Origin: Nitratiruptor sp.
GTDB taxonomy: Bacteria; Campylobacterota; Campylobacteria; Campylobacterales; Nitratiruptoraceae
Direction of reading: 5' to 3'
Length of the DNA stretch: 64,000 nt
NCBI GenBank assembly: GCA_009659925.1
Contig: PUXW01000008.1
Coordinates: forward strand, 3,398 to 67,397
The stretch's first letter is position 1; each line of letters begins with the position of its first letter. Below the pieces are notes generated by a model, which saw only the letters and a list, made by a program, of their open reading frames with translations, searched no databases and was not told the DNA's origin. The translations under genes and the position numbers were made by a program. Positions 38,985-54,608 of this stretch are shown here, piece after piece.

Positions 38985-39631
38985 TCGCCTTGGCCGTCCA
39001 AAAGGCCCTCCCCCACTTCCACCTCGATATCGAGCTCACCATTCCCCGCCACAGCTTCCTTGGGATCATGGGGCCAAGTGGGAGTGGCAAGAGTACCCTC
39101 TTGCGGATCGTTGCTGGTTTAGAGCGGGCCCAGGGGCGTATCGAAGTGGATGGGACCATCTGGCTCGATCCAAAGACTTTCCTCCCTCCCCAGAAGCGTT
39201 CCATCGGCTTTGTAGTCCAGGAGTACGCCCTCTTTCCCAATCTCACGGTTCTCGGAAATCTGCTCTATGTTGAGAAGAACCCCTCCCTTGCCCGTCACCT
39301 GTTGGAGGTGGTAGAACTTTGGAAGCTCCGGGATAGCTATCCCAAGGCCCTTAGTGGAGGGCAACGCCAGCGGGTCGCTTTGGCAAGAGCCCTCATGCGC
39401 CGCCCCAAACTCCTGTTGCTGGATGAGCCTCTGGCTGCCCTCGATCCGAGAATGCGCCTCAAGCTCCAAGGGGAGATCCGTCGCCTCCACGAAGAGTTTG
39501 GGACCACCACCATCATGGTTAGCCACGACCTGGCCGAGCTCCAGCGGCTGTGTGACAGGATCGTCACCATCGACCAGGGCCGCATCGTCCAGGGGGGGAG
39601 CCTCCCCTTTCGACTCGCCGCTTTACGCTAG
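38981..39631 (+). CDS. modC: ABC transporter ATP-binding protein (short ModC-like, no TOBE domain)
   Basis: Walker A 'GPSGSGKST', signature 'LSGGQRQR' and Walker B 'LLLLDEP'. It overlaps modB. Confidence 0.75.
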   Translation: MIALAVQKALPHFHLDIELTIPRHSFLGIMGPSGSGKSTLLRIVAGLERAQGRIEVDGTIWLDPKTFLPPQKRSIGFVVQEYALFPNLTVLGNLLYVEKNPSLARHLLEVVELWKLRDSYPKALSGGQRQRVALARALMRRPKLLLLDEPLAALDPRMRLKLQGEIRRLHEEFGTTTIMVSHDLAELQRLCDRIVTIDQGRIVQGGSLPFRLAALR

Positions 39632-40845
39632 GCTCCCAGGTTGGTGATGATTTCGTAAATTGGCATCAAGACCCCAGCCGCTACAAGTCCCAGAATGGCT
39701 CCCAGGATCACCTGCAAGGCCGGTTCAATCATGGTGGTCAGCCGTTCCAAGGTGTTGCGGATCTCCTCTTCATAGACCTCAATGGCTCGCTGGAGGGATT
39801 CATCCAACTTTCCCGTACTCTCGCCGATGAGGACCGTTCGCAAGACCAGCTTGGAGAAGAGGCCGCTTTGCTCGAAGGCTTCGGAAAGGGAGTAGCCGTT
39901 GTTGATGGAGCGGTAGATCTCCTCGAAGCGCTCTCGGATGTAGCTGTTGGGTTCGAGCTCCTTGTAGATGAGCTCGAGGCCCTTGACCAGGGAGGAGCCG
40001 GTGCGGTACATGTCCCGAATGGTCTTGAGGTTTTCGGTAATGCGGCTCAAGAAGATGAGGCGTCCGAAGATGGGCAGGCGGAGGATATATTTGTCGTAGA
40101 GGTAGCGGAACTCCTCCCGCCACAAGACCAAAATTTTGATGGCAAAAAGGGTTCCAAGGAGGATGGCAAAGAAGTAGACGAAGATGATCTTGTGGTTGGT
40201 TACATAGATGAGGATCTGGGTGGGCAGGGGCATGGAGGGGAGTTTTAGGGAGTTGAAGACCGTCAGGATCTTGGGAAGGACCCAAAAGAGCATGACCGAA
40301 ATGGTGACGCTCATGACCAGGACAACGATGATCGGGTAGGTGAGGGCCTTCTTGATGGAGGCCCGCAATTTCAAGAGCCAGCGCAGATAGTTGGCGTACT
40401 CGATGAGGGTGGGACCAAGCATCCCCGTCATCTCGCTCACCTCGGTCATAGCCACCAGGTTGCGGGGGAAGTCCCGGTACTTCTTGATGGCGTTGCTAAA
40501 GCTCGTTCCATTCTCCAGGTCCTGGACGATCTTTTTCAAGAGGTAGCGCATCTTCGCCGAAGAGGCGTGCTCGGTGAAGTCCTCGATGGCCTGGATGATA
40601 TCGATCCCGATCTCCAGGGATTTGCCTACATGAAAACAGAAATCCTCCAGCTCCCGGAGCCCCACCTTTTGAAAGCGCAGAGAGAGGCCTTGGAACTTTC
40701 CCTTGGGGCGGATATCGAGGAGGACCAGGTTGGTCCGGTATCGGAGGATCTCGTTGATGATCTCATCCTCGCTTCGGGCCTCAATCTCGTCGAAATCGAT
40801 CTCGCCACTGCGGGTGTCGTAATACTTGACGATGAAGGTGGCCAT
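39628..40845 (-). CDS. type II secretion / type IV pilus platform protein (GspF/PilC family)
   Basis: Two T2SSF-like repeats and three TMs; 405 aa. Its stop overlaps the modC stop as CTAG, and its start overlaps the upstream stop as TAATG. Confidence 0.9.
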   Translation of the reverse strand: MATFIVKYYDTRSGEIDFDEIEARSEDEIINEILRYRTNLVLLDIRPKGKFQGLSLRFQKVGLRELEDFCFHVGKSLEIGIDIIQAIEDFTEHASSAKMRYLLKKIVQDLENGTSFSNAIKKYRDFPRNLVAMTEVSEMTGMLGPTLIEYANYLRWLLKLRASIKKALTYPIIVVLVMSVTISVMLFWVLPKILTVFNSLKLPSMPLPTQILIYVTNHKIIFVYFFAILLGTLFAIKILVLWREEFRYLYDKYILRLPIFGRLIFLSRITENLKTIRDMYRTGSSLVKGLELIYKELEPNSYIRERFEEIYRSINNGYSLSEAFEQSGLFSKLVLRTVLIGESTGKLDESLQRAIEVYEEEIRNTLERLTTMIEPALQVILGAILGLVAAGVLMPIYEIITNLGA

Positions 40846-42524
40846 TAGTGGAGCCCCTTATTGGTTCTCAAGACCCGGACCAGCTCTTCGACGGTGGTCA
40901 GTTTGGAGAGCACTTTCTCGACTGCATCCTTGTACATTGGCTTCATTCCCCGCTGGATCGCTTTTTTGCGTAGGTCAATGGCCGAAATGGAGCGTAGATT
41001 GACGATATCGTTTTGCAACTCCTGGTCGGGGATGAAGATCTCCCCGACGACCACCCGTCCCTTGTAGCCTGTGAAGTTGCACTCCAGACACCCTTTCCCC
41101 TTGGCCAGGATGATGGACTCGGTCGAATCGAGTCCGAGGATCTCCTTCTCCTCCTCATTGGCCTCATACTCATACTGGCAGACCGGACAGATGCGGCGCA
41201 AGAGGCGCTGGCCGATGATTCCAAGGAGTGCCGGTCCCAAGGAGGCGGTTTCGACTCCCATGTTGGCCAGACGGTAAGGGGCATCGGTAGAGATGTTGCT
41301 GTGGAGGGTGGAGAGGACCAGGTGGCCGGTCTCTGCCGCCTTGATGGCGATGTCGGCGGTGGTCAGGTCCCGAATCTCTCCGATGAGGATGATGTCCGGA
41401 TCTTGGCGCAAAATGGAGCGCAAAGCCTTTTCGAAGGTGAGCCCGGCCCGCTCGTTCACGGCGATCTGGCGGATGAGGTCCCACTTGATCTCTGGGGGAT
41501 CCTCGATGGTGATGATACACTTTTTGAGGGAGAAGACATGCTCGAGCATGGCGTAAAGGGTCGTGGTCTTCCCGCTTCCTGTAGGACCGGTGGCCAGGAT
41601 GATCCCATAGGGCTGTTTGGCGACTGCTGAGAGCTTTTGGAGTTCTTTGGGGGAGTAGCCGAGATTGGAGAGGACTGGAAGCTCCCCGCCGATGTTGAGA
41701 AGTCGCATGACGGCGATCTCCCCGAAAACGGCTGGGGAGGTGGCCAGACGGACATCGATCTCCCGCTTGCCATACTTGATGGTGAAGTGGCCATCGAGGG
41801 GCATGCGGGATTCGGAGATATCGAGGTTGGCCATGATCTTGAGTCGGACGATGATGGAGCTGTGGATCTTCTTGGGAAGGACGAGGCGCACCCGCAAGAT
41901 TCCATCGATACGAAACTTAACCCGGGTTACGTTCTTGCCCGTTTCGATATGGACGTCGCTGGCGTTCTCCTCGATAGCTTTGTAGAGGATGTGGTTGACC
42001 AGGTCGATAATGGAGCGGTCCTCCCCCACATTGATGTTGCGATCGATCCGTTTGAGGATGTCGTTGACGATCTGGTCGATGTTGTACCTGGCCCCGTAGA
42101 AGCGTTTGAAAAGCTCTTCGTAATCGCTCTCCCCGACCTTGACGATCTCGATCTTGTAGTTGCCGTAGTACTTACGGACGATGGGCAAGATCTCGGGCAA
42201 AGAGACGCTCTTGTAGGAAGCGATGTAGAGGGTATCGTCTTCGATGCGCAAGGGGATGATGGAGAAGCGGAGGGCATACTCCTTAGGGAGCTTTTTGGCT
42301 ACCTCCTCGTCGGCCTCCTGCTGGTCCCCATCCTCTTCTTCTCCCATCTGTTTGGCCAGAGCCTTGAGGAGGATGTTCTCCGAGACGAATCCCAGGCGCA
42401 AGAGGACCTCGCCCAACATCTCTCCCGTATGCTGTTGCTCCTTGAGGGCGAGCTCTAGGAGTTCGTCGGTGATGGCTCCTTCCTCTTTGAGGAGCTCTCC
42501 AAGCTTTTTCGGTGGTGTTGCCAT
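40845..42524 (-). CDS. GspE/PilB-family assembly ATPase
   Basis: N-terminal T2SSE_N-like 'LGELLKEEGAITDELLELALKEQ', Walker A 'GPTGSGKTTT', 'LRQDPD', and the tetracysteine 'CPVC...CLEC'. Confidence 0.9.
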   Translation of the reverse strand: MATPPKKLGELLKEEGAITDELLELALKEQQHTGEMLGEVLLRLGFVSENILLKALAKQMGEEEDGDQQEADEEVAKKLPKEYALRFSIIPLRIEDDTLYIASYKSVSLPEILPIVRKYYGNYKIEIVKVGESDYEELFKRFYGARYNIDQIVNDILKRIDRNINVGEDRSIIDLVNHILYKAIEENASDVHIETGKNVTRVKFRIDGILRVRLVLPKKIHSSIIVRLKIMANLDISESRMPLDGHFTIKYGKREIDVRLATSPAVFGEIAVMRLLNIGGELPVLSNLGYSPKELQKLSAVAKQPYGIILATGPTGSGKTTTLYAMLEHVFSLKKCIITIEDPPEIKWDLIRQIAVNERAGLTFEKALRSILRQDPDIILIGEIRDLTTADIAIKAAETGHLVLSTLHSNISTDAPYRLANMGVETASLGPALLGIIGQRLLRRICPVCQYEYEANEEEKEILGLDSTESIILAKGKGCLECNFTGYKGRVVVGEIFIPDQELQNDIVNLRSISAIDLRKKAIQRGMKPMYKDAVEKVLSKLTTVEELVRVLRTNKGLH

Positions 42525-43126
42525 TAGAGTACCTTTGCCCGTTCTAGCCGTTTTCTATCTTTGGAGGTGATGAGGGGGAAGAGAAAGGTCCCCTTCAAGA
42601 TTCCCCGTTCCAACACGAAACGCTCCGGATCCTCGATGGAGTAGATGGTCGCCTCCTTCAAAGCGATGAGGAAGCGGTAGAGGTCCAGCTTCGAGGGGGC
42701 CTTGACGAGGAGGGCGATCCGGGCCAGAGAGGAAGGGGCCTTCTTGCTTCGCCTCTTTTTCCCCTTGCTCTCCGGCTCTTTCGCTTGGGCCAGGACCACC
42801 TGGACTCCGTTGCGCTTGGCCTCCTGGAAGAGGAAGCTGTAAATTTCCCGCTGGTTTTCAAAGAGCCGCTTGCCCGCTAGGAGCTGGCGCATCTTCTCGA
42901 TCCCCTTTTGCTCCCGTTTGAGGCTCTCGCGCAGTTGGGTGAGATCCTGCCGTTTGCGCTCAAACTCTTGCTGGAGGTTCTCATACTCCTCTTGGAGTTT
43001 GATGTGGGAGTTGACGAAGTAGACCATCAAGGCGATCTCGGCTCCCAGGAGGAAGAGGAGGGTGAGGAAGATGAGAAAGTACTTCTTCTCCAGCTCCATT
43101 GCAAAGGTGCCACTTTTAAGTAGCAT
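42524..43126 (-). CDS. bitopic PilO/GspM-like assembly protein (putative)
   Basis: N-terminal TM 'YFLIFLTLLFLLGAEIALMVYF', a coiled coil 'KLQEEYENLQQEFERKRQDLTQLRESL' and a ~90-aa periplasmic alpha/beta region. Assignment is by architecture and position only. Confidence 0.45.
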   Translation of the reverse strand: MLLKSGTFAMELEKKYFLIFLTLLFLLGAEIALMVYFVNSHIKLQEEYENLQQEFERKRQDLTQLRESLKREQKGIEKMRQLLAGKRLFENQREIYSFLFQEAKRNGVQVVLAQAKEPESKGKKRRSKKAPSSLARIALLVKAPSKLDLYRFLIALKEATIYSIEDPERFVLERGILKGTFLFPLITSKDRKRLERAKVL

Positions 43127-44456
43127 AGTTCAACTCCTCTAGCTCGATCTTGTAAAAGGTAAGCAGCTGCCCCTCTCGGTTGACGACGATCTCCTTGTGA
43201 ATCTTCTTGAAGAGGGGGACCTTGGTGATGGCCTGCTCGAAGTGCTCCATCGCCTCTTGGTTGGGGAAGGTGAAGACCCCGACAAACTGGTACTGGGGTT
43301 TGAGGCGCTTCTTCTTCCTTCCTCTAGAGGAGCTATTTTTGTTTTGGATCTGGAGGGAGACGACCTCCCCTTTTTGGCCTTGGACCTCCCGCTCAATGAG
43401 GAAGGATCCTTCGATAAAGAGGGGGTAGGGGAGCTTCTTGATGGTCTTGATGTAGTTGGTAGAGGAGATGGCAATTTGGTTCTGCTCCATCTTGTTGCGC
43501 TCAATTTGCTCCTGGGTCTCTGCGAGTTGGTGCCCCAGGCTCTCGAACCGTTTGGAGAGTTGGTAGTAGCGCATATACTCCCAGGAGAGTCCAGAGGCCA
43601 GGGCGAGGACGAGGAAGGAGAGGGCGTAGATGAACCGTTTATTATCCTCGGGGGAGAGGTAGATGCGGATGGGCTCTTTCTCGATGATAGGTTTGGCTCG
43701 AAAGACCAGGGGGAAGAGGAGGGCAACATTGACCTGGGGGTAGGCTTCGTGGAGTTTGGCCAGCTGCTTTCCGATCTTCCCCTGTTTGAGAAAGTCGAAG
43801 TACTCCTTGGGGAAGCGATCTTCGCCAAAGATGAAGATCTGCTCCTCCTTCAAATCGAGGCCGAGCTTATCTTGGACGAGCTCTCGCAACATCCCGCTCT
43901 CGAAGGGAACGCTCCGATAGGAGATGTTGAGGATTTGCATCTCCCGATGGTAGAAGACCATGGAGGTGATGAGGTCGTGGCCGTAGTGGACGACGGCGTA
44001 GAGCTCCTCATTGGAGGAGCGCTGGGCCAGTTCGATGAAGAAGTCGTAGAGGAGGTAGAGCTCGTTGACGGGCATCTCCTGCTCGATGATCCGCTTGGGG
44101 AGGATGTAGAGAAAGACCGTCACGAACCCCTTCTTTTCCCGACTTGGATACTCCTTGAAGAAGAAGGAGTACTCCTGGGAGCTGAGGCCGCTCTCTTCGA
44201 GGCGGCTGATGGCGTAGTTCTCGATCTGGAGGTATTTGAGGTTCTTCTTGAGGGATTTGGGGAATTCGAGTTTATAAAAGAGGGTCTCTTCGCTGTTGAG
44301 GATCCCCACGAGGTAGCTGCTCTCAAGCCTGTGGAGGTTGGCGACGAACTCCTCCACATTGAGCTGGAGGAGGTGGCGTTTTTTGAGGCTCCGTTTGTAG
44401 ACGATCGCCTCGACGATCCGGTCGTTCTCTTGCAAGTAGTTGTAAAATCGCATCAT
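43116..44456 (-). CDS. GspL-like / PilM-PilN-fusion-like bitopic protein (putative)
   Basis: A ~275-aa cytoplasmic domain, one TM 'FIYALSFLVLALASGLSW' (residues ~275-295), a coiled coil and a ~100-aa periplasmic domain. Assignment is by architecture and position only. Confidence 0.4.
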   Translation of the reverse strand: MMRFYNYLQENDRIVEAIVYKRSLKKRHLLQLNVEEFVANLHRLESSYLVGILNSEETLFYKLEFPKSLKKNLKYLQIENYAISRLEESGLSSQEYSFFFKEYPSREKKGFVTVFLYILPKRIIEQEMPVNELYLLYDFFIELAQRSSNEELYAVVHYGHDLITSMVFYHREMQILNISYRSVPFESGMLRELVQDKLGLDLKEEQIFIFGEDRFPKEYFDFLKQGKIGKQLAKLHEAYPQVNVALLFPLVFRAKPIIEKEPIRIYLSPEDNKRFIYALSFLVLALASGLSWEYMRYYQLSKRFESLGHQLAETQEQIERNKMEQNQIAISSTNYIKTIKKLPYPLFIEGSFLIEREVQGQKGEVVSLQIQNKNSSSRGRKKKRLKPQYQFVGVFTFPNQEAMEHFEQAITKVPLFKKIHKEIVVNREGQLLTFYKIELEELNYAT

Positions 44457-44462
44457 TCCGTC

Positions 44463-46064
44463 CTACAAGTTGCAGTTGAGCTCCCCATCCTTTTCCAGGA
44501 GGCAACGGCCATCGTTCTTCCCTTCCATCGAAGCCTTGATGATATCGTTGAGCAGATAGTGGTCCTCCCCTTCACACTTGGCCTTGTTGAAGAGGATGAA
44601 GGGGTTCGTAAAGAGGTCGATGCGCACCAGCTTCCCTCCAGAGCGCTGGATGGTGTGGCACCCCCTATCGTCTAGGTAGGAGACATCCTCTCCCAAGATG
44701 AGTTCCAACGTCGTAAAGCCGTTATCCTTGGGGCCATCACTGGAGAGGAGGAGGATTCGATCCTGGTTGCGATCCCCCTGGGTCCAGAGTTTGGCCAGGG
44801 TCGTGATGGGGTCCCGTTCATTCTCGCAATCGTCCAAGGAGTTGTAAAAGGCGATTTCGTCCACCTGGGCATCGATGGAATAGACGATACTCGGGTACTC
44901 GCTCAAGTCGGTGCACTCCAGCTCTCCATCCTCGTCGACCACATGGCCAGCGATGGAAGAGGCGATCATGACGACGATCTTCTCCCCAGGTTCGACGCCT
45001 TCAGCTCCGATTCCAACCCCTTGATCGTAGGCCCCCACCAGTTCGGGAAGGCGGATGGGATCTCCGTTGCAATCAGACTGGGTGAAGAACTTGACGCTAT
45101 CCCTGGTCTCCTTGTCGATTCCGAAGAAGAGGCCAGCCTCCTCCTCATACCCGAAGTCCTTCCAGTTGTAGCACTGCCACTCCTTCCCGTCGAAGAGTTT
45201 GACCGAGCTCTCTTGGACCTTCTGGACGAAGAGGAAGAAGCGTTGGGGATAGGAGAGGGAGCTGCACAGCCCCTGGAGGAGGCGCTGGATCGTCAGCTCC
45301 CCTACGATATCGCTATAACCGCTACACCCCTCTCCCTCGACCCTCACTTTGGCGGCGGCATACTCCTTGTTCCCCCCTTTGTTCTTACCACTGACTCCCG
45401 GACACTCCCCTTGGGAGATGAAAAGGGCTGCCACACTATACCCTGTGCCCGGGGTGATGAGCTCATCATCCTTGGTATCTCCCTTGTCGGTGACGATGGG
45501 GAGGTAGTAGCTGGAGTTGATCTCGGGAGTGCTATTGATGGTGGTCTTGTTGCTCAAAAAGGCGACCAGAGGGCAGAGGCGTTGGAGGGAGCCCTTTTGG
45601 GCTAGCTCGAAGTTGACATCGTAGCGGATAGGTTTCTGGAAGCCATCTTCCTTGCGCTCTCCCAATGTAGCGTAGGGAAGGAGGTAGGGGGGAATGTTCT
45701 GCCCCCTGGCAAAGTCGATATCGCCGCAGCGGTCATTGCGTAAGGGGGTGTGGGTGGTGTAGTAGTACTTGGCCAGGCAAGCCCCCTCTTCCAGATCGAC
45801 CTCTCCATCTCCATCGATGTCGCATCCCTCCTCCTTCTTGCAGCGATCCTCATACCCATCGCAGTCGATGTCTGGGCATGGGAGGGCTCCGTTGGTCATG
45901 GCGTAGGTGATCGCCGAATCTTGGAGCTTTTGCAAGTAGAGTTTGGTGCCCCGATAGCGTTCTCCCTGGGAGACCTTGCCAAAGGAGGTAACCCCCATGG
46001 CGATGAGGAAGGAGACGATGATGAGGACGATTGCCATCTCAACTAGAGTGAATCCCCGTCTCAT
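44463..46064 (-). CDS. giant prepilin-type (class III signal peptide) protein, 533 aa, Cys/Asp-rich
   Basis: 'MRRG|FTLVEMAIVLIIVSFLIAMG' has Gly-1, Phe+1 and Glu+5. I count 18 Cys. It carries the Cys-flanked 'CDIDGDGEVD' loop. Confidence 0.75.
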   Translation of the reverse strand: MRRGFTLVEMAIVLIIVSFLIAMGVTSFGKVSQGERYRGTKLYLQKLQDSAITYAMTNGALPCPDIDCDGYEDRCKKEEGCDIDGDGEVDLEEGACLAKYYYTTHTPLRNDRCGDIDFARGQNIPPYLLPYATLGERKEDGFQKPIRYDVNFELAQKGSLQRLCPLVAFLSNKTTINSTPEINSSYYLPIVTDKGDTKDDELITPGTGYSVAALFISQGECPGVSGKNKGGNKEYAAAKVRVEGEGCSGYSDIVGELTIQRLLQGLCSSLSYPQRFFLFVQKVQESSVKLFDGKEWQCYNWKDFGYEEEAGLFFGIDKETRDSVKFFTQSDCNGDPIRLPELVGAYDQGVGIGAEGVEPGEKIVVMIASSIAGHVVDEDGELECTDLSEYPSIVYSIDAQVDEIAFYNSLDDCENERDPITTLAKLWTQGDRNQDRILLLSSDGPKDNGFTTLELILGEDVSYLDDRGCHTIQRSGGKLVRIDLFTNPFILFNKAKCEGEDHYLLNDIIKASMEGKNDGRCLLEKDGELNCNL

Positions 46065-46801
46065 AGCTCTTTACTCCTGAAAAGATAGCTTGCAATGGCC
46101 AGAATGGCACCGATATAGATGAGGCTATAGAGAGCCAGCTGCCAGAGGCTCACACTCCCTTCGACCCCATAGACCACCAAGGCCGAGAGGTCGTAGAAGT
46201 CGTAGCTGGGGAAGAGGGTGTAGAAAAAGCGGGCCAGGGCCTCGACGACTGGACTCTCGCTGGCCATCTTGGCGAATTCGTAGGTACTGTGGGCGAGAAA
46301 GTAGAACATGAAGGTAAGCAGGACCGCCACTCCGGCAGAAGTGTAGATGCCAAAGAGGAGGGCGGCTGCAAGGGTGGTCAGTTGCTCCAGATAGAGGGCC
46401 AGGAAGTAGGCTAGAAGAGAGAGAGGCTTTTGGATGAAGATGAGGGAGAGCAGGAAGGCGATGAGGACCAGGATTCCCACCACAATCCCATAGCCCCCAT
46501 ACTTACCTGCGATGAAGGCCACAGGGTGAATAGGCTTGGAGCGATAGATGAGGGCCATATTCCCAGCCATTTCGTAGGAGACCTTCATGGGGACGAAGAA
46601 GATGACGCTGAAGCTGATGAGGTAGTAGAAGAGGGCGAGGAGGTTGATGGCAAAAGAGATATCGATCCACTTGGTGCTGAAGTTGGCGAAGTAGTAGGCA
46701 AAGGCGACGACGAAGAGGTAGAAGGCGAGTAAAACCGCGATGAAGCGATCCCGCAACCCCTCTTTCAAGGTGAAGCGGGCGATGATACTACTTTTGCGCA
46801 T
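46061..46801 (-). CDS. ABC-2-type transporter permease
   Basis: Start set at MRKSSIIARF (AAGGAG SD 7 nt upstream). About 6 TMs and no recognisable soluble domain. ATGA overlap with the downstream prepilin gene. Confidence 0.65.
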   Translation of the reverse strand: MRKSSIIARFTLKEGLRDRFIAVLLAFYLFVVAFAYYFANFSTKWIDISFAINLLALFYYLISFSVIFFVPMKVSYEMAGNMALIYRSKPIHPVAFIAGKYGGYGIVVGILVLIAFLLSLIFIQKPLSLLAYFLALYLEQLTTLAAALLFGIYTSAGVAVLLTFMFYFLAHSTYEFAKMASESPVVEALARFFYTLFPSYDFYDLSALVVYGVEGSVSLWQLALYSLIYIGAILAIASYLFRSKEL

Positions 46802-47453
46802 TTTCAAGCTCCTTGATGGTCTTTTCGAGCCAGCGCCGCTCGGCTGGATCGTCGCTGTGGCGCAGGAGGGCCTTGAAGAGGGCGATGGCCTTCTCATCCT
46901 CGTTCAACTTGGAGAGGAGGATGGGGTAGGTCTCCCGGGCAGTCATGGCCGCTTCGGGATTGTCATAGATCGCCTTGGCGTAGGGTTGGGCTCCGGCTAG
47001 ATTCTCGAGGCGAAATTGCCACCAGTAGCCCATGACCATCATCAATTTCCAATCCCGTTTGGCCAGATCGAAGTGTTCGTGCATGAGTTGATCCACCTTG
47101 TAGAAGTTGCTCCAATCCCCCTCCTCTTTGCCATACATGTACTGGTAGGCTACGATTTCGAGGGGGTTAATGTTGTAAGGATCGAGGGCGAGGGAAGCTC
47201 TGGCCACAGGCTCCCACTGGTCGCTCAGGAGCAGGTAGACCCGATTGGTAATACTCAGGCTATCGAGGAAACGGGCCATAAAGAGCTTGCGGTCAAAGCT
47301 CAAGATCTCGCTCATGGCCTGGGAGGGAATCAGGAAGGTGTTGATGTATTCCCGGCGCTGGAAGTAGCGCTTGAAGGCCTCTTGGTCGAAGAGATCGGGG
47401 AAGAGGGAGAGTTTCGCCGCCACGAGGGCGGCGAAGAGGATGAGCCAGCGCAT
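46788..47453 (-). CDS. exported helical-repeat protein, function unknown
   Basis: Signal-peptide-like 'MRWLILFAALVAAKLSLF'; Trp/Tyr-rich and helical (TPR-like?). The AAGGAG SD overlaps the upstream stop. Confidence 0.45.
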   Translation of the reverse strand: MRWLILFAALVAAKLSLFPDLFDQEAFKRYFQRREYINTFLIPSQAMSEILSFDRKLFMARFLDSLSITNRVYLLLSDQWEPVARASLALDPYNINPLEIVAYQYMYGKEEGDWSNFYKVDQLMHEHFDLAKRDWKLMMVMGYWWQFRLENLAGAQPYAKAIYDNPEAAMTARETYPILLSKLNEDEKAIALFKALLRHSDDPAERRWLEKTIKELENAQK

Positions 47454-47462
47454 TGAGACTCC

Positions 47463-48362
47463 TTACCAGATCTTGTAGGCGATGAAGTTGCGGTTGCGGC
47501 TGTTCCAATCGTAGCCGAGTTTGCCGTTGTCTTCTGGCCGCTTGTCTCCATCGCTATCACTCAGCTCACTATTGAGCTGGTAGTACTTCTCATTCTTGGC
47601 GTCATAGCGCAAAGCGGTGCGCAGGGTATCGCAATGCCAACATGTACGCCCATCGACCTTGGTGTCGAGTTCGGCCACCTTGGCATCGGCTGGACCGCTG
47701 CGCACGTAGCTGGGCTGGTAGTAGGTGAAGGTGTCGCTACAATCTCCATCTCCGTTGAGATCGCAAAGCCCATCGCTACAATCGTCATCACACTGATCGT
47801 CTTCGCTCTCTTCCTCCCGGCTATCCTCTTTGACCTGGATCCGTTTGTTCTCGTAGTTGGCAAGGACCACAGCGGTGAAGGGGCCGGCTCCAAAGTCGAT
47901 GGAATCGGCTACATCTCCCCCATTCCAGACCGTTCCAGGATCGAAATAGTAGAGGGTTCGCCACCAATCCCCTCCATCGCTCTTGTCGGTGCGCACATAC
48001 CCTGCCGAGGAGAAGAACCATGGAGTCTCGATGATGCGCAAATCCTCGTCGTCCAAAAGCCCGTCAAACTTGAGGGAGTATCTGGCACCTCCACTCTCCC
48101 AGAACTGGATGACTCCATCCCGAGGGGTATAGATTGGCCGCCCAGCCTCCTGGGAGATCTTGGAGGCTCGCCCATCATAGGGGAGCATGCCCCGCTTGTT
48201 GTAGTAGGTCCCAATGGCCGCAGCGATCTTCTTGAACTTCTGGGCCTCCTTTTGCATCTGAGCCGACTTGATCAGCTCAGTTCCCTTGATCCCCATGGCG
48301 ATCAGAAAGCCGATGATGACCAGCACGATCGCCAACTCCACCAGTGTGAAACCGCGACGCAT
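47463..48362 (-). CDS. prepilin-type (class III signal peptide) protein, 299 aa, with acidic Cys-knot
   Basis: 'MRRG|FTLVELAIVLVIIGFLIAMG'. The strongest SD in the operon (AAGGAGG). 'DDQCDDDCSDGLCDLNGDGDCSD' lies at 47733-47822. Confidence 0.8.
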   Translation of the reverse strand: MRRGFTLVELAIVLVIIGFLIAMGIKGTELIKSAQMQKEAQKFKKIAAAIGTYYNKRGMLPYDGRASKISQEAGRPIYTPRDGVIQFWESGGARYSLKFDGLLDDEDLRIIETPWFFSSAGYVRTDKSDGGDWWRTLYYFDPGTVWNGGDVADSIDFGAGPFTAVVLANYENKRIQVKEDSREEESEDDQCDDDCSDGLCDLNGDGDCSDTFTYYQPSYVRSGPADAKVAELDTKVDGRTCWHCDTLRTALRYDAKNEKYYQLNSELSDSDGDKRPEDNGKLGYDWNSRNRNFIAYKIW

Positions 48363-48381
48363 CTAACCTCCTTTGATCTTT

Positions 48382-48397
48382 TTGGCCTCTTGGCCAA
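48382..48397 (-). promoter_or_regulatory. hairpin (TTGGCC-n4-GGCCAA) in the secretin-prepilin spacer
   Basis: A perfect 6-bp palindromic stem in the only sizeable intergenic gap of the operon, 10 nt upstream of the AAGGAGG SD. Confidence 0.3.
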
Positions 48398-48416
48398 CGG
48401 GTATTATCGGTGGAGG

Positions 48417-50327
48417 CTAGAAGTATTTTACCCGCAGCAGGAGGATGAGATAGCTCTTGATCTTGGAGAGCTTCTTTTGGCGGAAGAGGTGTTTGAGGAT
48501 GGGGATTTCTGAGAGGATGGGCATTCCCTGGATCGAGTCGTCGTCGATTTCAGAGGAGATCCCTCCAAGGACGAGGACCTCTCCCTCTTTGAGTTTGGCG
48601 ATGGCGTTGAGCTGCTTCGTCTCGATAGTCAAGGGGACGGGGCGGGTTTGGAAGCGGGAGGGATCGGCAATGATCATACTGGCCAACTGCTCTTCGAGCT
48701 CTGCGGCACTCTTGCCCTGGAGCTTCTGGAGGATGGGGATGATGTTGAGGAGGACTTCCTGGCTCTCTTCGTTGTAACGGGGGAGGACATAGAGGGTGAG
48801 GCCCTCGGAGATAATGGGCATCTTCTGGACATTGACCGAGCTGACCGTATTGCTGACATTCTGGGTGGTGGTGCTCTCATACTCGACCTTGTTGTAGATG
48901 AGGATGCGATCATTGCCCACTTTGATCACGGCTGGTTGGTTGTTGAGGGTTGTGATTCGGGGGGAGGAGATGACCCGGGTGTAGCCCTGGGCGGAGAGGG
49001 CGGCGAGGAAAGCTTGGAAATCGGCGCCCCGGAAGGTGAGTTCCACCATCCCCGTATCGGGGGCAAGCCGCTGCTCCAGTTTGACCACCCCATCGCTTCC
49101 AAGGAGCTTCACATCGTCGATGAGCCGTTTCCAGTTGACCCCCATGGTAAAGTCTTTGTTGTTGATGAACTCGACAATCTGCAAATCGACCATGATCTCC
49201 CTGTTGAGAATCTTGTTGAGGGCCTGGATGTACTCGTCGATTTTGGCGATAGTCTTGGGGCGGCCCCGGACGACGATGAGACCGCTGATGCGATCGACCT
49301 GGACGAAGGGGCGGTACTGGAGGGAGCGGTTGATGGTGGTGCGTTCGGTGGAGCTGACCACCTCCTGGCTCTGGCGCTGGGTATTTTTGGAATAGTTGCG
49401 CATGAGGGAGGCGATGGAGGAGAGCTCCTTGCTCCTAGCCGACATCTCCCCTCGCTGCTGGGTACTCTGGGCGACCCGGCTCTCGCTCTTTTTAGGGATG
49501 AGCTTGTTCAAATCCACCTCTTTGGAGGCCTTCTTCAAGGGATTGCCCTCTTGCTTTTGAAAGCCCTGCCCCCAGCGTCCCCCGCTGCTCTCTCCAAAGC
49601 TATCGGCCTCGCTCTGGGCACGTTGCTCCTGGCTCTGGCGATCTTGCTGGTCCTTGTCCTCCTGGCTCGTAGCCTTGGCCCTATTTCTAGATGCGGTCTT
49701 GGAGAAGGCGACCTGGATGGAGGTTTGCTCCTCATCGGCGATGATGCGCTCTAGGGTCGTGCGCACCTGTTCCCAAATGTCGATGCGCAACTGGTTGTTG
49801 ATGATCAGTTGGGCCTCTCCCGATTGGGTGCTGTCCCCAGCGGCCGAGGCCGAGGCGACCATCGAGTTGACGCTGCGCATCGAGGCGGGGACGAAGAGCT
49901 TGAGGATGGCGGTCTTGTAGGTGACGATCTTCACTCCCTTATCCGGAGTGACCTCGTAGCTAAATCCATGCTGTTCACACAAGGCGTCGAGGGCCTCCTT
50001 GAGGGTGGCATCCACCAGGAAGAGGTCTACATTGAGCTCTACATCCCGATCGAGGTAGATGTTGGTTTTGGTCAAGTAGGTTAAGGTCTTGAGGGCCTCC
50101 TTGAAGGGGACCTGGTGTAAGTTGACACTCACCCGCTTGAGCAAGAAGGGCGGGATCGGTTTGGAGAGGGGCTTTGGCTCCTGGGGTGGGGCTGCTTTGG
50201 AGTGCTCCTCGTAGGCCTTATAGCGATCCAGGGCCGCTTGGAATCGAGCCTTTCGCTGGGCCTCCTCCTGGGATGGGGTACACCCTGAAAGGAGGAGCAA
50301 GAGGAGAAGGGGTAGAAGGACCCTCAT
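48417..50327 (-). CDS. secretin (GspD/PilQ family), lipoprotein form
   Basis: Lipobox 'LLLLSGC', an N0-like 'VSVNLHQVPFKEALKTL...' domain, and a C-terminal secretin domain 'ISSPRITTLNNQPAVIKVG...GMPILSEIPILKHLF'. Confidence 0.9.
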   Translation of the reverse strand: MRVLLPLLLLLLLSGCTPSQEEAQRKARFQAALDRYKAYEEHSKAAPPQEPKPLSKPIPPFLLKRVSVNLHQVPFKEALKTLTYLTKTNIYLDRDVELNVDLFLVDATLKEALDALCEQHGFSYEVTPDKGVKIVTYKTAILKLFVPASMRSVNSMVASASAAGDSTQSGEAQLIINNQLRIDIWEQVRTTLERIIADEEQTSIQVAFSKTASRNRAKATSQEDKDQQDRQSQEQRAQSEADSFGESSGGRWGQGFQKQEGNPLKKASKEVDLNKLIPKKSESRVAQSTQQRGEMSARSKELSSIASLMRNYSKNTQRQSQEVVSSTERTTINRSLQYRPFVQVDRISGLIVVRGRPKTIAKIDEYIQALNKILNREIMVDLQIVEFINNKDFTMGVNWKRLIDDVKLLGSDGVVKLEQRLAPDTGMVELTFRGADFQAFLAALSAQGYTRVISSPRITTLNNQPAVIKVGNDRILIYNKVEYESTTTQNVSNTVSSVNVQKMPIISEGLTLYVLPRYNEESQEVLLNIIPILQKLQGKSAAELEEQLASMIIADPSRFQTRPVPLTIETKQLNAIAKLKEGEVLVLGGISSEIDDDSIQGMPILSEIPILKHLFRQKKLSKIKSYLILLLRVKYF

Positions 50328-51019
50328 TGGATGGCCTTCATAAAGGCTTCCTCCAGATTCGATGTGCCATAGCGCTCTTGCAGCTCTTCGGGGGTTCCCT
50401 GATCGATGATGCGTCCCTGGTGGATGATGACCACCTCTTGGGCTAGCTCCTCTACATCTGAAAGGATGTGGCTAGCGAAGAGGATCCCTCGTTTTCCACG
50501 AAGTTCAAAAAAGATCTCCTTCAAGGCCCGTCTGGCTAGGGGATCGAGGCCACTCATGGGCTCATCCAGGATCATCCACGGGGTATCGCACAAGATGGTG
50601 GCGATGAGGGCGAGCTTTTGGCGCATCCCCTTGGAATAGCCTTTGATCTGGCGATCGAGGCCGTCAAAATCGAGGAGTTTGGCCAACTCCTGGAGCCGCC
50701 CTTCGTCTAGTTCCCGATCGGCCAGGGCGACGATGAACTCCACATACTCGATCCCCTTGAGGTAGAGGGGAGGCTCCACCACTTCAGGGAGGTAGCTGAT
50801 GGACCATTTGGCCTCGATAGAGCGGGAATCCTTCCCGTCGATGCGGATCTCCCCCTCAAAGGAGTTGATGGCCGATACCAGACACTTGAGGAGGGTACTC
50901 TTACCCGCCCCGTTGGCGCCGATGATGGCGAAGGTGGTGTTGGATGGGACCTGGAAGGTGATGTCGAAGATTCCTTTTCCGTTCTTGTAGACCTTGGAAA
51001 CGTGGTCGAACTCTATCAT
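50324..51019 (-). CDS. ABC transporter ATP-binding protein (ABC-2 subfamily type)
   Basis: Walker A 'GANGAGKST', signature 'YSKGMRQK' and Walker B 'WMILDEP'. Start set at MIEFDHV. ATGA overlaps at both ends. Confidence 0.9.
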   Translation of the reverse strand: MIEFDHVSKVYKNGKGIFDITFQVPSNTTFAIIGANGAGKSTLLKCLVSAINSFEGEIRIDGKDSRSIEAKWSISYLPEVVEPPLYLKGIEYVEFIVALADRELDEGRLQELAKLLDFDGLDRQIKGYSKGMRQKLALIATILCDTPWMILDEPMSGLDPLARRALKEIFFELRGKRGILFASHILSDVEELAQEVVIIHQGRIIDQGTPEELQERYGTSNLEEAFMKAIQ

Positions 51020-51537
51020 CGCTTCCCTACCTTGAAAGAGTAATGGCGTTTTCCACATCGCATCTGAACCTGCAAGAGGGTGATGGTCTCGATCAAACAC
51101 CCCTTGTAGCGGTCACGCTCTTGCAAAAGCTCCCCTTGGGCTGTGAGGACCGCCCTCTTTCCATCTTCCCCGATGAAGGCGGCGATAAAGTGGATCTCCT
51201 TGGCTGGGGGTGGGGGAGAGGGGATGGAGTGGCTCCAGGAGCCCTTGGAGCTGGGAGGGGCCTTGGACGAGGAGCTCGCGGTGTTGGAGGTGGATGTAGA
51301 AGAGGCCCGTTTGGTGGAGAACTGGCTGGTAAGTTCGCGGATGGAGGGGAGGGATTGGGAGCTGGTGGAGCCATTCTCCTCGGGGCATCGAAGGGTCCCG
51401 TTGAGATCGGAGATATTGCTCTCCTCGATGATCATCGCGTCGATGGAGGAGAGGGTACTCTGGAGCCGCTCCCACTTTCCAGCCCACAATGCCAAGGCGA
51501 TTCCCAGGATGAGCCAGAATTTACGGAGCATACTCAA
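51016..51537 (-). CDS. signal-anchored protein with S/T/P linker and PilP/GspC-HR-like C-terminal domain (putative)
   Basis: TTG start 8 nt after AAGGAGG. TM 'FWLILGIALALWAG', a Ser/Thr/Pro-rich linker, and C-terminal 'IHFIAAFIGEDGKRAVLTAQGELLQERDRYKGCLIETITLLQVQM'. Confidence 0.35.
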   Translation of the reverse strand: MSMLRKFWLILGIALALWAGKWERLQSTLSSIDAMIIEESNISDLNGTLRCPEENGSTSSQSLPSIRELTSQFSTKRASSTSTSNTASSSSKAPPSSKGSWSHSIPSPPPPAKEIHFIAAFIGEDGKRAVLTAQGELLQERDRYKGCLIETITLLQVQMRCGKRHYSFKVGKR

Positions 51538-54268
51538 GGATCACCCCTCCTTCCCAGCGGATAGGACATGTGGTCTGGGGGGCCGCTTCGACCCGCAAAA
51601 CCACGACCCCGTCACATCCGGTATAATCGTCCACCAGACTCAAGCGGCACTTGTCGGTCACCTTGGGATCGTCGACGACGAAGCCGGTGACCCGTACATT
51701 CTTGACCCGGATCTCGGGATCGTCGGTTGCGACAATCTTGAAACGCAAGAAACAGACCCGTACCCCTTTCCCTTCGGCGTTGTCGCAGACTTGATTTTCG
51801 GTCTTGACTCCCGTTCCCCAGAGGGTTTTGAGCCTCGTGGCACCGACGCGCACCTGGTCGTAGGAGTTGGCGTAAAGGAAGACGGTCTTGGCCAACATGT
51901 AGGGGGGATAGACCAGTTTGGCGGTGGTGATGCCCCCTTTGCCGATGGTGTAGGTTTGATCTTCATGGTCGAAGGTGAGGGTGGCGGTGTTCTTGGAGCA
52001 GATATCGACCCGTTTCTCGTTTCCTACCACGTAGGTCAAGCCTCCAACTGGCGCCCCTTCGTAGCGCTTATAGAGACGGAGCCGATTCTCATCGAGGACC
52101 TCGACGATATCCCATCCTCCCAGGTAGAGGTTGTCCCCGCGATCTTCGTCAGCCAGCACGACTAGACGATCCAGATGGGGGGTGACATTGAGGAAGTCGT
52201 AACCTGGGGCCTCGTTGGTGAAGAGGGTGCCCTCTTCGGGGGTGTAGGCAATAGCTCCCCCTTGGCGGACATAGAGGTGGCGGCCGGTGGAGCTCTTCTT
52301 CACTCCGGCGATGGCTCCGAAGAAGATCTTGCTCCCCTCCTTGGCCGGGTTGCCATACTTGTCACTGGCGAGGATGGTGTAGACATCTTCGAAGATGGTC
52401 AAAACATCGTCATAGCGGCTTCCAGCCAGGGAGATAGAGATGGTATGGACCGGCCCCGAGACGATGGTGATGGGGATGTTCTGGACGAAGCGCTCTTGGC
52501 CATCCTCCTTGCTCAAGAGGACCTCTACTTCCAAGATGTCGACTCCCGAGTGAAAGAGGGTGTAAAAGTCGATCTCCACCGGATTGGAGCGGATCTCGTC
52601 GATCCTCTTTTCAAAGAGCTCCCTCTCCCGATCGAAGCTGATGAGGTGGTTCAAGGAGCGGATGCGAATGGAGCGAATCGCCTGGGCTGGGGCAAATTTA
52701 GCCTCATTGTCCCGGTAGACCACCCCGAGCATGAGGCTTCCGTAGGAGTCGACCTCGACATTGTCACTCTGATTGTAGGTGATGACCTTGTAGAAGTGCT
52801 CCTCGCTGGTACGCAAGAGCTTCAAGTGGAGGGTGGCGATGGCCTCTTGGGCAGTGAAATCGACATCGAGCTCGATCTCCTCTTGGGGAAGGCCCGTTGG
52901 AGCCCGGTAGATCAGCCGTTTGTGGCCATGTTCGTCAGTGGTGAAGCGGTTGCCAATGAGATTACCGCTCTCGTCGTAGAAGTAGCCCAGCTGGGTTCGG
53001 CTCTCCTCGTCGATGAGGGCACTCACCTCCACCTCGGCGGAGATGTAGCGGTTGGCCCCATCGAGGGTGTAGAGATCGACGATGGCACTCTCCCCCTCCC
53101 GCAAGGTCAAGGATTCGCTGCTCAACACGATCTTGCTCACTCTGGTGATCTGGGGGAAGATGATGCGAATCTGTTTGGAAACCCCCTCGCTGGTGATGGT
53201 GAAGGTATAGATCTTGCCTGCCAGGTCGGCCAGCCGATTGGGGGCGGTGTAGGTGAAGGTGGCCCGTCCCTGTTGATCGGTGTACAAGACGGTGGAGCTC
53301 ACACTTCCATAGAGCTCCCCTTGTTCGTCTACGAGGATCGGGATCTCGACCTTGGCCGGGACGGGGCGGTTATGGCGGTCGAGGGTGAGGACTTCGATGG
53401 TGTAGCTGACCCCTGGCTCTTGGACCCGGATGATGGAGGGATCGACCACCAATTTGGCCACTGGAAGGCGCTCTTTGGCAACCACCTCCACCGGCTGCTT
53501 CTTGCCAACACGCAAGAAGACCCCTCGCTCCTTGAGGATGAAGGCTAGATCGATGGAGGTGCGCCCGGCCCCGACCCCCCGTACCGCTAGGCTACCGATG
53601 GAGCCGTTGAGATCAAGGGGAATGACCTGGGCGATATGGGGGGCTTGGGAGCGGGCCTGGACCTGGAGAATGCGTTGGGGATCGACGGGCTCGCCGGTGG
53701 AGCTTTCGATGAAGCGATAGAGGAGGATTGTCTCCTCGCCGGCTTCAATGGTGCCATTTCCATCCTTGAAGGAGAGTTCGATCTCATAGGCTTGAAGCTG
53801 CTGGGCGATGTCGATAGGTGCTCGAAGGAGGCTTTGGAGTTGGCGACGCTCCTGAAGGCGGTTTCCATCTTCGAAGATAGTCTCCACCACATACTCAGCT
53901 CGAAAGGCGAGGCTTTGGAGATTGTAGCAGGGACTTTGGAAGGTGATCTCGAAGTTGAGGAGGGATCGGTTGGTAATGTCGATCGGCTCCCTATTGCGCT
54001 TTCCCTCGATGAGGGCCTCTTGGATGAAACAGCCGTTTGTGAGTGCTTGAGGGGTGAAGGAGAAGGAGCGGATATACAAGTGGCGCTGTACCCCTTCCAA
54101 AGTCGGCTCAAGTTCGATCTGGAGCGGGACACTCCCGACGACCCGGAGAGGATCGACCATCTGGAAGCGCCCATCGCTTCCGACTTCGACTTTGGAAGAG
54201 GAACTCCCACATCCGCTAATGAAAAGGGAGAGTAGGAAGAGTGTAAGTAGGTGGAAGAGTCGTTGCAA
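51521..54268 (-). CDS. large lipoprotein with repeated Ig-like (invasin/Big_1-like) modules
   Basis: The TTG at 54268, with a GAAGGA SD, gives '(M)QRLFHLLTLFLLSLFISGC' with a lipobox. Repeated 'V..D..G......YTD..G.A.F.Y.AP' type modules follow. The track's ATG at 54370 adds 34 featureless residues. Confidence 0.6.
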   Translation of the reverse strand: MQRLFHLLTLFLLSLFISGCGSSSSKVEVGSDGRFQMVDPLRVVGSVPLQIELEPTLEGVQRHLYIRSFSFTPQALTNGCFIQEALIEGKRNREPIDITNRSLLNFEITFQSPCYNLQSLAFRAEYVVETIFEDGNRLQERRQLQSLLRAPIDIAQQLQAYEIELSFKDGNGTIEAGEETILLYRFIESSTGEPVDPQRILQVQARSQAPHIAQVIPLDLNGSIGSLAVRGVGAGRTSIDLAFILKERGVFLRVGKKQPVEVVAKERLPVAKLVVDPSIIRVQEPGVSYTIEVLTLDRHNRPVPAKVEIPILVDEQGELYGSVSSTVLYTDQQGRATFTYTAPNRLADLAGKIYTFTITSEGVSKQIRIIFPQITRVSKIVLSSESLTLREGESAIVDLYTLDGANRYISAEVEVSALIDEESRTQLGYFYDESGNLIGNRFTTDEHGHKRLIYRAPTGLPQEEIELDVDFTAQEAIATLHLKLLRTSEEHFYKVITYNQSDNVEVDSYGSLMLGVVYRDNEAKFAPAQAIRSIRIRSLNHLISFDRERELFEKRIDEIRSNPVEIDFYTLFHSGVDILEVEVLLSKEDGQERFVQNIPITIVSGPVHTISISLAGSRYDDVLTIFEDVYTILASDKYGNPAKEGSKIFFGAIAGVKKSSTGRHLYVRQGGAIAYTPEEGTLFTNEAPGYDFLNVTPHLDRLVVLADEDRGDNLYLGGWDIVEVLDENRLRLYKRYEGAPVGGLTYVVGNEKRVDICSKNTATLTFDHEDQTYTIGKGGITTAKLVYPPYMLAKTVFLYANSYDQVRVGATRLKTLWGTGVKTENQVCDNAEGKGVRVCFLRFKIVATDDPEIRVKNVRVTGFVVDDPKVTDKCRLSLVDDYTGCDGVVVLRVEAAPQTTCPIRWEGGVILEYAP

Positions 54269-54358
54269 TTTCCATCCTTCGCTTCTATTGGAAGTGGAGC
54301 TGTGCTTGGTTAGTGTAGCAGAGGTGAAGTAAAAGTTCCTTTGAGGGAGCGAGCAAGT

Positions 54359-54400
54359 GGGAAAAGTCAAGGGGAAATTAAGGGGATTCGGGAATTTCGG
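54359..54400 (-). repeat. four phased AWTTCCC(C) direct repeats in the operon leader
   Basis: The minus strand reads 'aaATTCCCgAATCCCCttaATTTCCCCttgacTTTTCCC'. The plus-strand G-runs start at about 54359, 54371, 54382 and 54390. Confidence 0.4.
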
Positions 54401-54423: not shown

Positions 54424-54451
54424 ATTATAGCAAAAGTGAAGACCAAGTCAA
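54424..54451 (-). promoter_or_regulatory. near-consensus sigma70-type promoter (TTGACT-16 nt-TATAAT) for the 12-gene operon
   Basis: The minus strand reads 'ccTTGACTtggtcttcacttttgcTATAATaatt'. It lies between tRNA-Asn and the first operon gene, about 155 nt upstream of the TTG start. Confidence 0.4.
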
Positions 54452-54561: not shown

Positions 54562-54583
54562 ACATCGGCTTTTCGTGAGTAGA

Positions 54584-54589: not shown

Positions 54590-54608
54590 GGCAAATTTAT
54601 CCTCCCTG

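Follow-up and report, generated by a model that had tools for sequence, protein, structure and literature searches.

Why should an operon for a type IV filament carry the genes of an ABC transporter among those of its secretin and its pilins, and why should the pilins themselves be so large? The question is raised by twelve consecutive minus-strand open reading frames (ORFs) in a 64,000-nucleotide stretch of contig PUXW01000008.1 (hereafter, the window), part of a metagenome-assembled genome (MAG) of an uncultured deep-sea vent member of the Campylobacterota, labeled Nitratiruptor sp. The genes, which are chromosomal and numbered here g01 to g12 from the upstream end, run from 54268/54370 to 39628. 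A preliminary description, made from the sequence alone, had taken them for a same-strand, twelve-gene operon of a type IV filament or type II secretion system (T2SS)-like machine; the ORF calls and recomputed junctions bear out the operon, and the protein family matches bear out the type of machine. The ABC genes and the genes for both large pilins are conserved and coupled members of this operon, not passengers. The reading we favor, with moderate confidence and on the strength of sequence comparison, is that the operon encodes an envelope-spanning type IV filament machine, resembling the MSH and type IVa pilus (T4aP) systems and having an integral ABC module, whose product would be a cyclic di-GMP (c-di-GMP)-controlled adhesive fiber of large pilins.

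An ABC module in a filament operon

With the best start codons assigned, the eleven junctions of the operon measure -11, -4, -4, +54, +9, -14, -4, +6, -11, -1, and -1 nt, that is, eight overlaps and three gaps (54, 9, and 6 nt). The ATGA and TAATG junctions, as first located, agreed exactly on recheck. The ABC ATPase, g03 (50324..51019, on the minus strand like every gene of the operon), is of the ABC-2 type (ABC_tran, E-value 3e-21), has recognizable Walker A (GANGAGKST), signature (YSKGMRQK), and Walker B (ILDEP) motifs, and is joined by ATGA overlaps to g02 before it and to the secretin gene behind it. The permease, g07 (46061..46801), is a 246-amino acid (aa) protein of the six-helix ABC-2 (type V) kind with a NosY-like fold. 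It has no Pfam match of its own; its relatives carry the ABC-2 families PF12679, PF12698, and PF01061, and an AlphaFold2 (AF2) model built from 8 sequences (pLDDT 86.9) finds its best PDB matches in NosY of NosDFY (TM 0.68–0.73, E-value 3e-5, 20–23% identity). The family match of the ATPase, together with the fold model and the relatives of the permease, confirms that an ABC ATPase and an ABC-2 permease are embedded in the operon, as first described. Just ahead of the permease gene lies g06 (46788..47453), the product of which measures 221 aa, begins with a signal or an anchor, and has an entirely helical body that is probably periplasmic; no Pfam, NCBIfam, or PDB match was found for it. We propose that it is the accessory subunit of the ABC module, in the position of PilG.

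A survey of gene neighborhoods in relatives bears out that the ABC genes and the large pilin genes are kept beside the secretin and ATPase genes in several lineages. The order from the gene for the 171-aa protein (g02) to that for the platform protein (g12) recurs wholly or partly in some five further lineages of Campylobacterota, most of them uncultured, with GC contents of 37–53%. Taken from g02 only as far as the extension ATPase gene, it is kept in L002/L003/L005 and L010, and in part in L004, L006, L007, and L012, at 38–76% identity. All twelve genes stand in the same order, at 37–92% identity, in a sister Campylobacterota MAG (loci L002, L003, and L005). Locus L010 holds a g02-like gene followed by genes for the ABC ATPase, secretin, a 302-aa pilin, a 226-aa protein, the permease, a 541-aa pilin, proteins of 438 and 197 aa, and the extension ATPase. 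Parts of the same series are seen in L012/L013 (lipoprotein homologue, 155-aa protein, ABC ATPase, secretin, and pilin) and in L004 (permease, 540-aa pilin, and 438-aa protein), and L007 (GC 37%) is rearranged, with GspL-like, GspM-like, ATPase, and platform genes, a two-component system, a gene for a 212-aa protein, and then the g02-like, ABC ATPase, and secretin genes.

Two sub-modules are invariant throughout, g02–ABC ATPase–secretin and g06–permease, the latter usually flanked by two pilins. In L007, L010, and L012 alike, overlaps fuse the g03-like gene to the g02-like gene before it and to the secretin gene behind it, and the g06-like gene always directly precedes and overlaps the permease gene, a pairing kept even in L006, where no pilin follows. 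The order, conserved in several diverged lineages, is not a matter of chance, and because coupling and synteny are both conserved we regard the ABC module as integral to the machine. As far as the databases searched show, the system is confined to a few Campylobacterota from vents, all uncultured.

The next relatives of the extension ATPase (g11; about 48% identity) include one from Desulfurobacterium thermolithotrophum. In the Desulfurobacterium cluster (L009:7882-12255), secretin and TPR-protein genes stand ahead of that for an MshE-like ATPase, with two genes for pilin-like proteins (285 and 409 aa) immediately before it, and a 197-aa pilin encoded on the opposite strand is 55% identical over its N-terminal 62 residues to g05, the smaller pilin of the window. 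It has no ABC genes, so that genes for large pilin-like proteins predate the ABC module in this branch.

Two of these loci carry further genes. After the cluster of the sister MAG (L002:17185-20741) come convergent genes for an AAA_22 (ExeA/MshM-like) protein and a TPR/SPOR-like protein and then one for a large serpin-domain protein; no homologue of any of the three was found in the window. In L010 (L010:4772-6726), Uma2 and nucleotidyltransferase/NTase-substrate-binding genes, toxin-antitoxin-like in kind, are inserted between the secretin and pilin genes.

Outside the Campylobacterota, the closest relatives of the ABC ATPase lead to a second type of pilus cluster. A search of 5.8 G proteins returned some ten clusters of orthologs that share at least 45% identity with g03, followed by a long list at 39–45%, from which we sampled five matches of ranks 11 to 119 (39–45% identity; loci L014 to L018). 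All five are linked to type IV pilus (T4P) genes and belong to one alphaproteobacterial cluster type (L014:1738-16729, L015:2953-17816, L016:2666-17751, L017:3067-18325, and L018:3125-18358), some of them labeled Micavibrio; we found no paper describing it. Its genes encode, in order, a glnA-like product, PilB (with MshEN), PilC, proteins of ~530, ~215, and ~170–220 aa, the ABC ATPase, a TPR protein, PilD, two PilT, the secretin, a permease of ~250 aa, and a protein of ~240 aa; in L017 and L018, rpoD precedes the glnA-like gene and a 238-aa pilin follows the ~240-aa protein.

The likeness to the window is considerable in some respects. The closest outgroup ABC ATPase (39–43% identity) is encoded directly after the gene in the PilP position, the ~250-aa membrane protein is homologous to g07 (hhalign 88%, E-value 3e-6), a PilO-like protein, a g06-like protein, and a PilB with MshEN are all present, and in L017 and L018 the large, 238-aa pilin stands beside the permease pair. 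The alphaproteobacterial clusters differ in having their own PilD, two PilT-type ATPases, and a TPR protein, in their single, moderately large pilin and lack of a giant lipoprotein, and in a secretin and a PilB that are 23% and 34% identical, respectively, to those of the window. Judged from the sequences, the three-part ABC module recurs, beside a large pilin, in the pilus clusters of unrelated organisms.

That Myxococcus needs PilGHI for its pili has been known since 1998. In Myxococcus xanthus, the accessory protein PilG, the ATPase PilH, and the permease PilI (TC 3.A.1.144.5) are needed for pilus assembly and for PilA export (PMC3924187), and pilin translocation across the inner membrane has been assigned to them (PMC3724824); pilA-pilG-pilH-pilI are co-transcribed (PMC3546991), and PilA is unusually large, at 208 aa mature (PMC11046646). 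The role of PilGHI is stated just as ‘ABC transport’ or ‘pilin export’ (PMC3924187, PMC3724824, PMC3546991). As in the window, a three-part ABC-2 system lies inside a pilus cluster beside the gene for an unusually large pilin, and the order pilin–g06–permease mirrors pilA-pilG-(pilH)-pilI. The two differ in that the ATPase gene of the window stands apart from the other two, fused between g02 and the secretin gene, in that the core of the window machine is MshL/MshE-like, with no PilMNOPQ, PilT, or PilD in the cluster, and in pilin size (299 and 533 aa versus 208 aa). We take the ABC part of the window operon to correspond, by arrangement and not by sequence, to PilGHI of Myxococcus, and so not to be an invention of this operon alone. 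The suggestion that the operon represents a distinct subclass of type IV filament stands in part: the association with an ABC system has this precedent, as well as T4P-linked relatives at all five loci sampled.

The likeness of g07 to NosY, for its part, is one of fold only. The NosDFY structures of 2022 reportedly offer a precedent, an ABC-2 pair whose target is a partner protein in the periplasm. Copper passes along a NosL-NosD-NosZ route (10.64898/2025.12.16.694761), and the operon differs from NosDFY(L) in that its products include no NosD-like beta-helix protein, NosL, or NosZ and in its pilus-machine context.

The core machine and its pilins

The early identification of a GspE/PilB ATPase, a GspF/PilC protein, and a secretin holds, on Pfam T2SSE, T2SSF, and Secretin matches. 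The extension ATPase of the GspE/PilB/MshE family, g11 (40845..42524; 559 aa; T2SSE, PF00437, E-value 2e-110), begins with an MshEN domain (PF05157, E-value 1e-9) and scores 58.9 bits against the NF053729 c-di-GMP motif model (cut-off 38); both tandem 24-residue MshEN c-di-GMP-binding motifs can be read in its sequence, so that binding is predicted. A CxxC...CxxC zinc motif is also present. Its scores against the NCBIfam GspE model (449 bits, cut-off 630) and PilB model (438 bits) both lie below the cut-offs, and its best PDB matches, among PilF/PilB/GspE structures at E-values of 1e-120 to 1e-98, are Thermus PilF, M. xanthus PilB, and Geobacter PilB. The last gene, g12 (39628..40845), encodes a 405-aa PilC/GspF platform protein with two T2SSF repeats (PF00482, E-value 4e-49). 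Elsewhere in the window (22627-25746, plus strand) is a gene for a 1039-aa NIT-PAS-GGDEF-EAL protein, a nitrate/nitrite-sensing c-di-GMP turnover enzyme by its domains, which is a possible regulatory input to the g11 ATPase.

The secretin, g04 (48417..50327; 636 aa; Secretin, E-value 1e-26), has a lipobox of its own (LLSG↓C). Its best family model is MshL (TIGR02519; E-value 9e-47, 159 bits against a cut-off of 250), ahead of PilQ (E-value 4e-25) and GspD (E-value 1e-24, 87 bits against a cut-off of 351), and its PDB matches are GspD and BfpB. A weak STN/N0-like region is followed by a low-complexity insert (about aa 200–335) and the C-terminal secretin domain; the insert, of some 130 aa, is rich in Q, S, E, and K. 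Between them, the secretin (MshL best) and the ATPase (MshEN) make the core machine appear closer to MSH/T4aP systems than to T2SS.

The MSH class is defined by mshA, E, G, L, and M, with MshM mandatory, and has been reported in Epsilonproteobacteria (Denise et al. 2019, 10.1101/576694). Besides a secretin for which MshL is the best model and an ATPase whose N-domain has c-di-GMP-binding motifs of the MshE type, the operon plausibly encodes a bitopic protein that is a fusion like MshI, and the AAA_22 (ExeA/MshM-like) and TPR/SPOR genes of the sister MAG adjoin its cluster. The operon differs from that of the Vibrio MSHA pilus in its gene order and in the presence of the ABC module, in having two pilins only, both far above the size of MshA-D, and in an MshL score below the cut-off; homologues of MshM and MshN, as encoded in the sister cluster, were not found in the window. 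The idea that the ABC ATPase replaces MshM/ExeA was rejected, the sister MAG carrying both an AAA_22 gene and the ABC gene.

Three further proteins would connect the platform to the secretin. The first, g10 (42524..43126; 200 aa), is a bitopic PilO/GspM-like protein with a transmembrane (TM) segment at residues 15–40, a coiled coil, and a C-terminal domain. One of four homologues gave a PilO hit (E-value 0.002, with Pfam searched at E-values up to 10), and its profile aligns with that of the PilO-position protein (~215 aa) of the alphaproteobacterial T4P clusters (hhalign 85%, E-value 6e-6). The second, g09 (43116..44456; 446 aa), conserved in 5 lineages, consists of about 275 cytoplasmic residues, one TM segment (~277–294), a coiled coil, and a small C-terminal beta-beta-alpha-beta-beta domain; from this topology and its place in the operon, that of GspL/MshI (a PilM-PilN fusion), it is probably GspL/MshI-like. 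An AF2 model made with no alignment (pLDDT 40; 60–73 for the C-terminal domain alone) was unusable for a fold search. The third, g02 (51016..51531; 171 aa), is anchored at its N-terminus and continues through a linker rich in Ser and Pro into a conserved domain of some 60 aa at the C-terminus. It directly precedes the ABC ATPase gene in L007, L010, and L012 as well, in the PilP/GspC/MshK position, and its position and architecture suggest a PilP/GspC role. Of the labels first given to these bitopic proteins, PilO/GspM-like is thus backed by profile matches, weakly, and GspL-like by topology. The PilO hit of g10 was the only Pfam match, even at E-values up to 10, among all homologues of g09, g10, and g02; hhalign of g02 and g09 against the alphaproteobacterial T4P cluster proteins gave no signal, and sequence-profile searches of the PDB with g09, g10, g02, g06, both pilins, and the lipoprotein family returned nothing beyond pilin N-helices.

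Both pilins carry the class III signal MRRG↓FTLVE and match N_methyl (24.8 and 21.7 bits against a cut-off of 21.2) and TIGR02532 above the cut-offs. The G↓FTLVE motif occurs only twice in the six frames of the window, in g05 and g08, and their GspG and GspH matches cover the N-terminal ~60 residues only. That there are two such pilins and that both are oversized, as was noted at the outset, is therefore confirmed. The first, g05 (47463..48362; 299 aa, 295 aa mature), contains 6 Cys, 11% Asp, and the motif CDDDCSDGLCDLNGDGDC, and its Cys/Asp motif is conserved across lineages. At 63–69% identity across lineages where the ABC ATPase is 50–76% identical, it is the best conserved non-motor protein of the cluster and our candidate for the major filament subunit. 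The sole long gap of the operon, of 54 nt, lies before it (48363-48416) and holds a strong AAGGAGG ribosome-binding site. The same gap also carries a small GGCC-AAGA-GGCC hairpin.

The second pilin, g08 (44463..46064; 533 aa, 529 aa mature), contains 18 Cys, and its CPDxDCDGxEDRC...CDxDxDGExD motifs are invariant among homologues; its likeness to known pilins is confined to the N-terminal helix. Large minor pilins serve elsewhere as tip or priming subunits, and by this analogy g08 is a candidate modular pilin for the tip or for priming. The DxDxDG-like motifs suggest that g05 and g08 may bind Ca2+. In a survey of 1,955 major T4a pilins, sizes ranged from 42 to 297 aa with a mean of 141, the large ones being enriched in Myxococcota and Bdellovibrionota (PMC11046646); g05 at 295 aa mature would lie at the very top of this range and g08 beyond it.

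What the machine may do

Under the reading we favor, a hexameric MshE/PilB-type ATPase, g11, with both c-di-GMP motifs at its N-terminus, would work on the PilC/GspF platform g12; g09, g10, and g02, in GspL/MshI, PilO/GspM, and PilP/GspC roles, would connect the platform to the self-lipidated, MshL-like secretin g04, the putative outer-membrane pore. The Cys/Asp-rich g05 (295 aa) would be polymerized into a thick fiber, probably stabilized by Ca2+ and disulfides, and primed or tipped by the 529-aa modular pilin g08. Such a fiber may mediate surface attachment or biofilm formation at high c-di-GMP. By analogy with PilGHI, the ABC module would move the unusually large pilins into or out of the inner membrane; alternatively, it may mechanically energize a periplasmic step of assembly, as NosFY would for NosD, with no export of a small solute.

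More tentatively, and with more doubt than confidence, we suggest that the Campylobacterota cluster, the clusters of L014 to L018, and Myxococcus PilGHI may together represent a widespread, unrecognized class of ‘ABC-assisted’ type IV pili, in which a NosFY-like module would be a second ATP-driven component handling oversized pilins. In all three cluster types the pilins are unusually large, and here the same kind of three-part ABC-2 module is coupled by overlaps into a machine very different from the Myxococcus pilus. The testable idea is that an ABC-driven step may be required for pilins of large size, in which case the module would give some type IV pili a second part that consumes energy. 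Were such a class real, the system in the window would be the extreme case, in which a thermophilic vent bacterium builds its fiber from 295-aa pilins, stabilized by Ca2+ and disulfides, and tips it with a pilin of 529 aa. Mature pilins of 295 and 529 aa with invariant Cys/Asp motifs are candidates for unusually robust fibers from a hot environment, and they are, with the confidently modeled permease g07, candidates for structural work.

Several results weigh against the adhesive-fiber reading. No family, PDB, or structure match supports the roles proposed for g09 and g02, and the alignment of g06 with the ~240-aa protein of the alphaproteobacterial clusters, collinear as it is, is weak (hhalign E-value 0.011–0.056). 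The 64-kb window contains no PilT-like gene, no match to any of three PilD queries for a prepilin peptidase (Peptidase_A24), a statement about this locus only, and no pilin of normal size, the two large pilins being the only pilin-motif genes. A true major pilin could be encoded outside the window. The preliminary description was right, within the window, that prepilin peptidase, PilT-type ATPase, and pseudopilins of GspG-K size are missing; the genes for a prepilin peptidase, for an ATPase of the ExeA/MshM type, and for a retraction ATPase, if there is one, must lie elsewhere. Since peptidase, PilT, and normal-size pilin are all missing from the window, a short, non-retractile, T2SS-like pseudopilus has to be reckoned with.

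This is the rival that survives best, and we consider it unlikely. In a T2SS-like secretion or display machine, a short piston-like pseudopilus of the two large pilins would push the lipoprotein g01, or folded proteins, through the secretin, and the ABC module would pull lipid-anchored cargo or pseudopilins from the inner membrane. Lipoproteins such as the pullulanase PulA are T2SS substrates encoded beside their machine. With T2SS and the Campylobacter Cts system the operon shares a GspE/GspF/secretin core and the lack of a retraction ATPase in the cluster. The absence of PilT from the window, the presence of two pilin genes only, the GspL-like fusion architecture of g09, and the marginally higher score of g11 for GspE than for PilB all fit a secretion machine, as does the place of the lipoprotein gene, first in the operon and translationally coupled, with homologues that also head the clusters of L002 and L012/L013. 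The differences from T2SS lie in the components: the GspG-K set of five pseudopilins was not found, the GspC, GspL, and GspM (T2SSM) families gave no match even at an E-value of 10 among the operon proteins and their homologues, and the GspE and GspD scores fall below the cut-offs. The ATPase has MshE-type c-di-GMP motifs and pilus ATPases as its best solved relatives, the secretin is MshL-like, and g05 is conserved in the manner of a structural polymer subunit.

The lipoprotein itself bears on the same choice. Encoded by g01 (51521..54268; 915 aa), with a TTG start at 54268, a GAAGGA ribosome-binding site, a signal peptide, and the lipobox FISG↓C, it is a lipoprotein as first proposed; its Ig-like repeats are supported indirectly, through the domains of its relatives. 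Its own sequence, beta-rich and of Ig-like repeat type, has no Pfam match, the conserved C-terminal ~350 aa included. Among 1.84 G representatives, 289 relatives were found, many with MG2, MG4, bMG3, Big_1, or Invasin_D3 domains and often with a GC lipobox. The 2.1 kb available upstream of the L010 cluster hold no g01-like gene, and in L007 the two-component system and the 212-aa protein occupy its place. These two loci speak against a machine built around g01 and against the lipoprotein as a fixed component; it is probably an optional, lineage-specific addition, which may act as an adhesin at the cell surface or be associated with the fiber, as its partner or cargo. Lol-like extraction of the lipoprotein, considered as a reason for the ABC module, was rejected as well, the ABC genes persisting in L010 and L007 without it.

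It is highly improbable that the ABC genes are an independent exporter of drugs, lipids, or polysaccharides riding in the operon of an ordinary MSH-type pilus. Such an exporter would account for the generic DrrA-, lantibiotic-, and GldA-type matches of g03, of which those of DrrA and GldA type lie below cut-offs, and for the similar large-pilin cluster of the Desulfurobacterium relative (48% identity), which does without ABC genes. It is at odds with the placing of the genes, which are split over two places in the operon, overlap type IV filament genes, and keep their places in every lineage seen. The permease family is moreover very small. Its homologues number 8 among 5.8 G proteins, scans with its profile added a single GTDB species representative and one further metagenome contig, and those with visible context all lie in this cluster type. 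The nearest outgroup ATPases, as described above, were T4P-linked in five of five cases.

Least probable of all is a DNA-uptake (competence) pseudopilus like Campylobacter Cts, where, as here, an NTPase gene stands beside the secretin gene (ctsP-ctsD), in a phylum with several naturally competent genera: the nearby ComFC-like gene (36625-37263) that had prompted the idea matches ComF weakly (25 bits; cut-off 233), is encoded on the opposite strand with an unrelated mod-type ABC operon in front of it, and does not adjoin the cluster in the sister MAG, a linkage we rejected as that of a non-conserved neighbor; the NTPase of the operon is an ABC protein, not of the AAA_22/ExeA type as in Cts; the pilins, at 299 and 533 aa, do not resemble those of competence systems; and no ComEA, ComEC, or DprA was found among the window genes scanned, a scan that covered part of the genes.

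Flanking sequence and neighboring genes

A promoter-like site, TTGACT-16-TATAAT with TG (54424..54451, minus strand; 11/12 consensus matches, and a consensus match only), sits between the operon and the tRNA-Asn gene upstream, just downstream of the latter. The tRNA-Asn (GTT) gene (54487-54561, minus strand; Rfam match) has its own perfect TTGACA-17-TATAAT promoter, and together they occupy 54487-54612, immediately upstream of the promoter-like site of the operon. Genes for tRNAs are common integration points; the GC content of the operon is that of the remaining window. An Rfam scan of the leader and the window found no riboswitch or other family except this tRNA. Upstream lie a radical-SAM gene and hemE, and downstream a convergent mod-type ABC importer, neither flank being related to the operon. 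The stop codon of g12 overlaps that of the convergent modC-like ABC ATPase gene at 39628-39631, with no terminator-like structure between them.

No paper was found in the literature on a pilus or T2SS-like system in Nitratiruptor. The window has a GC content of 57%, and the homologous clusters (the window, L002, L007, L010, and L012) span 37–57%. Nitratiruptor is a low-GC genus, and at 57% GC the Nitratiruptor label of the MAG is doubtful. Proteins of the window were found in an NCBI MAG labeled ‘Nitratiruptor sp.’ or Epsilonproteobacteria and in JGI metagenome 3300005095. At the start of the window (31-2983, plus strand) stand BatA-like VWA-TPR and BatD-like genes, which form an operon of the aerotolerance type.

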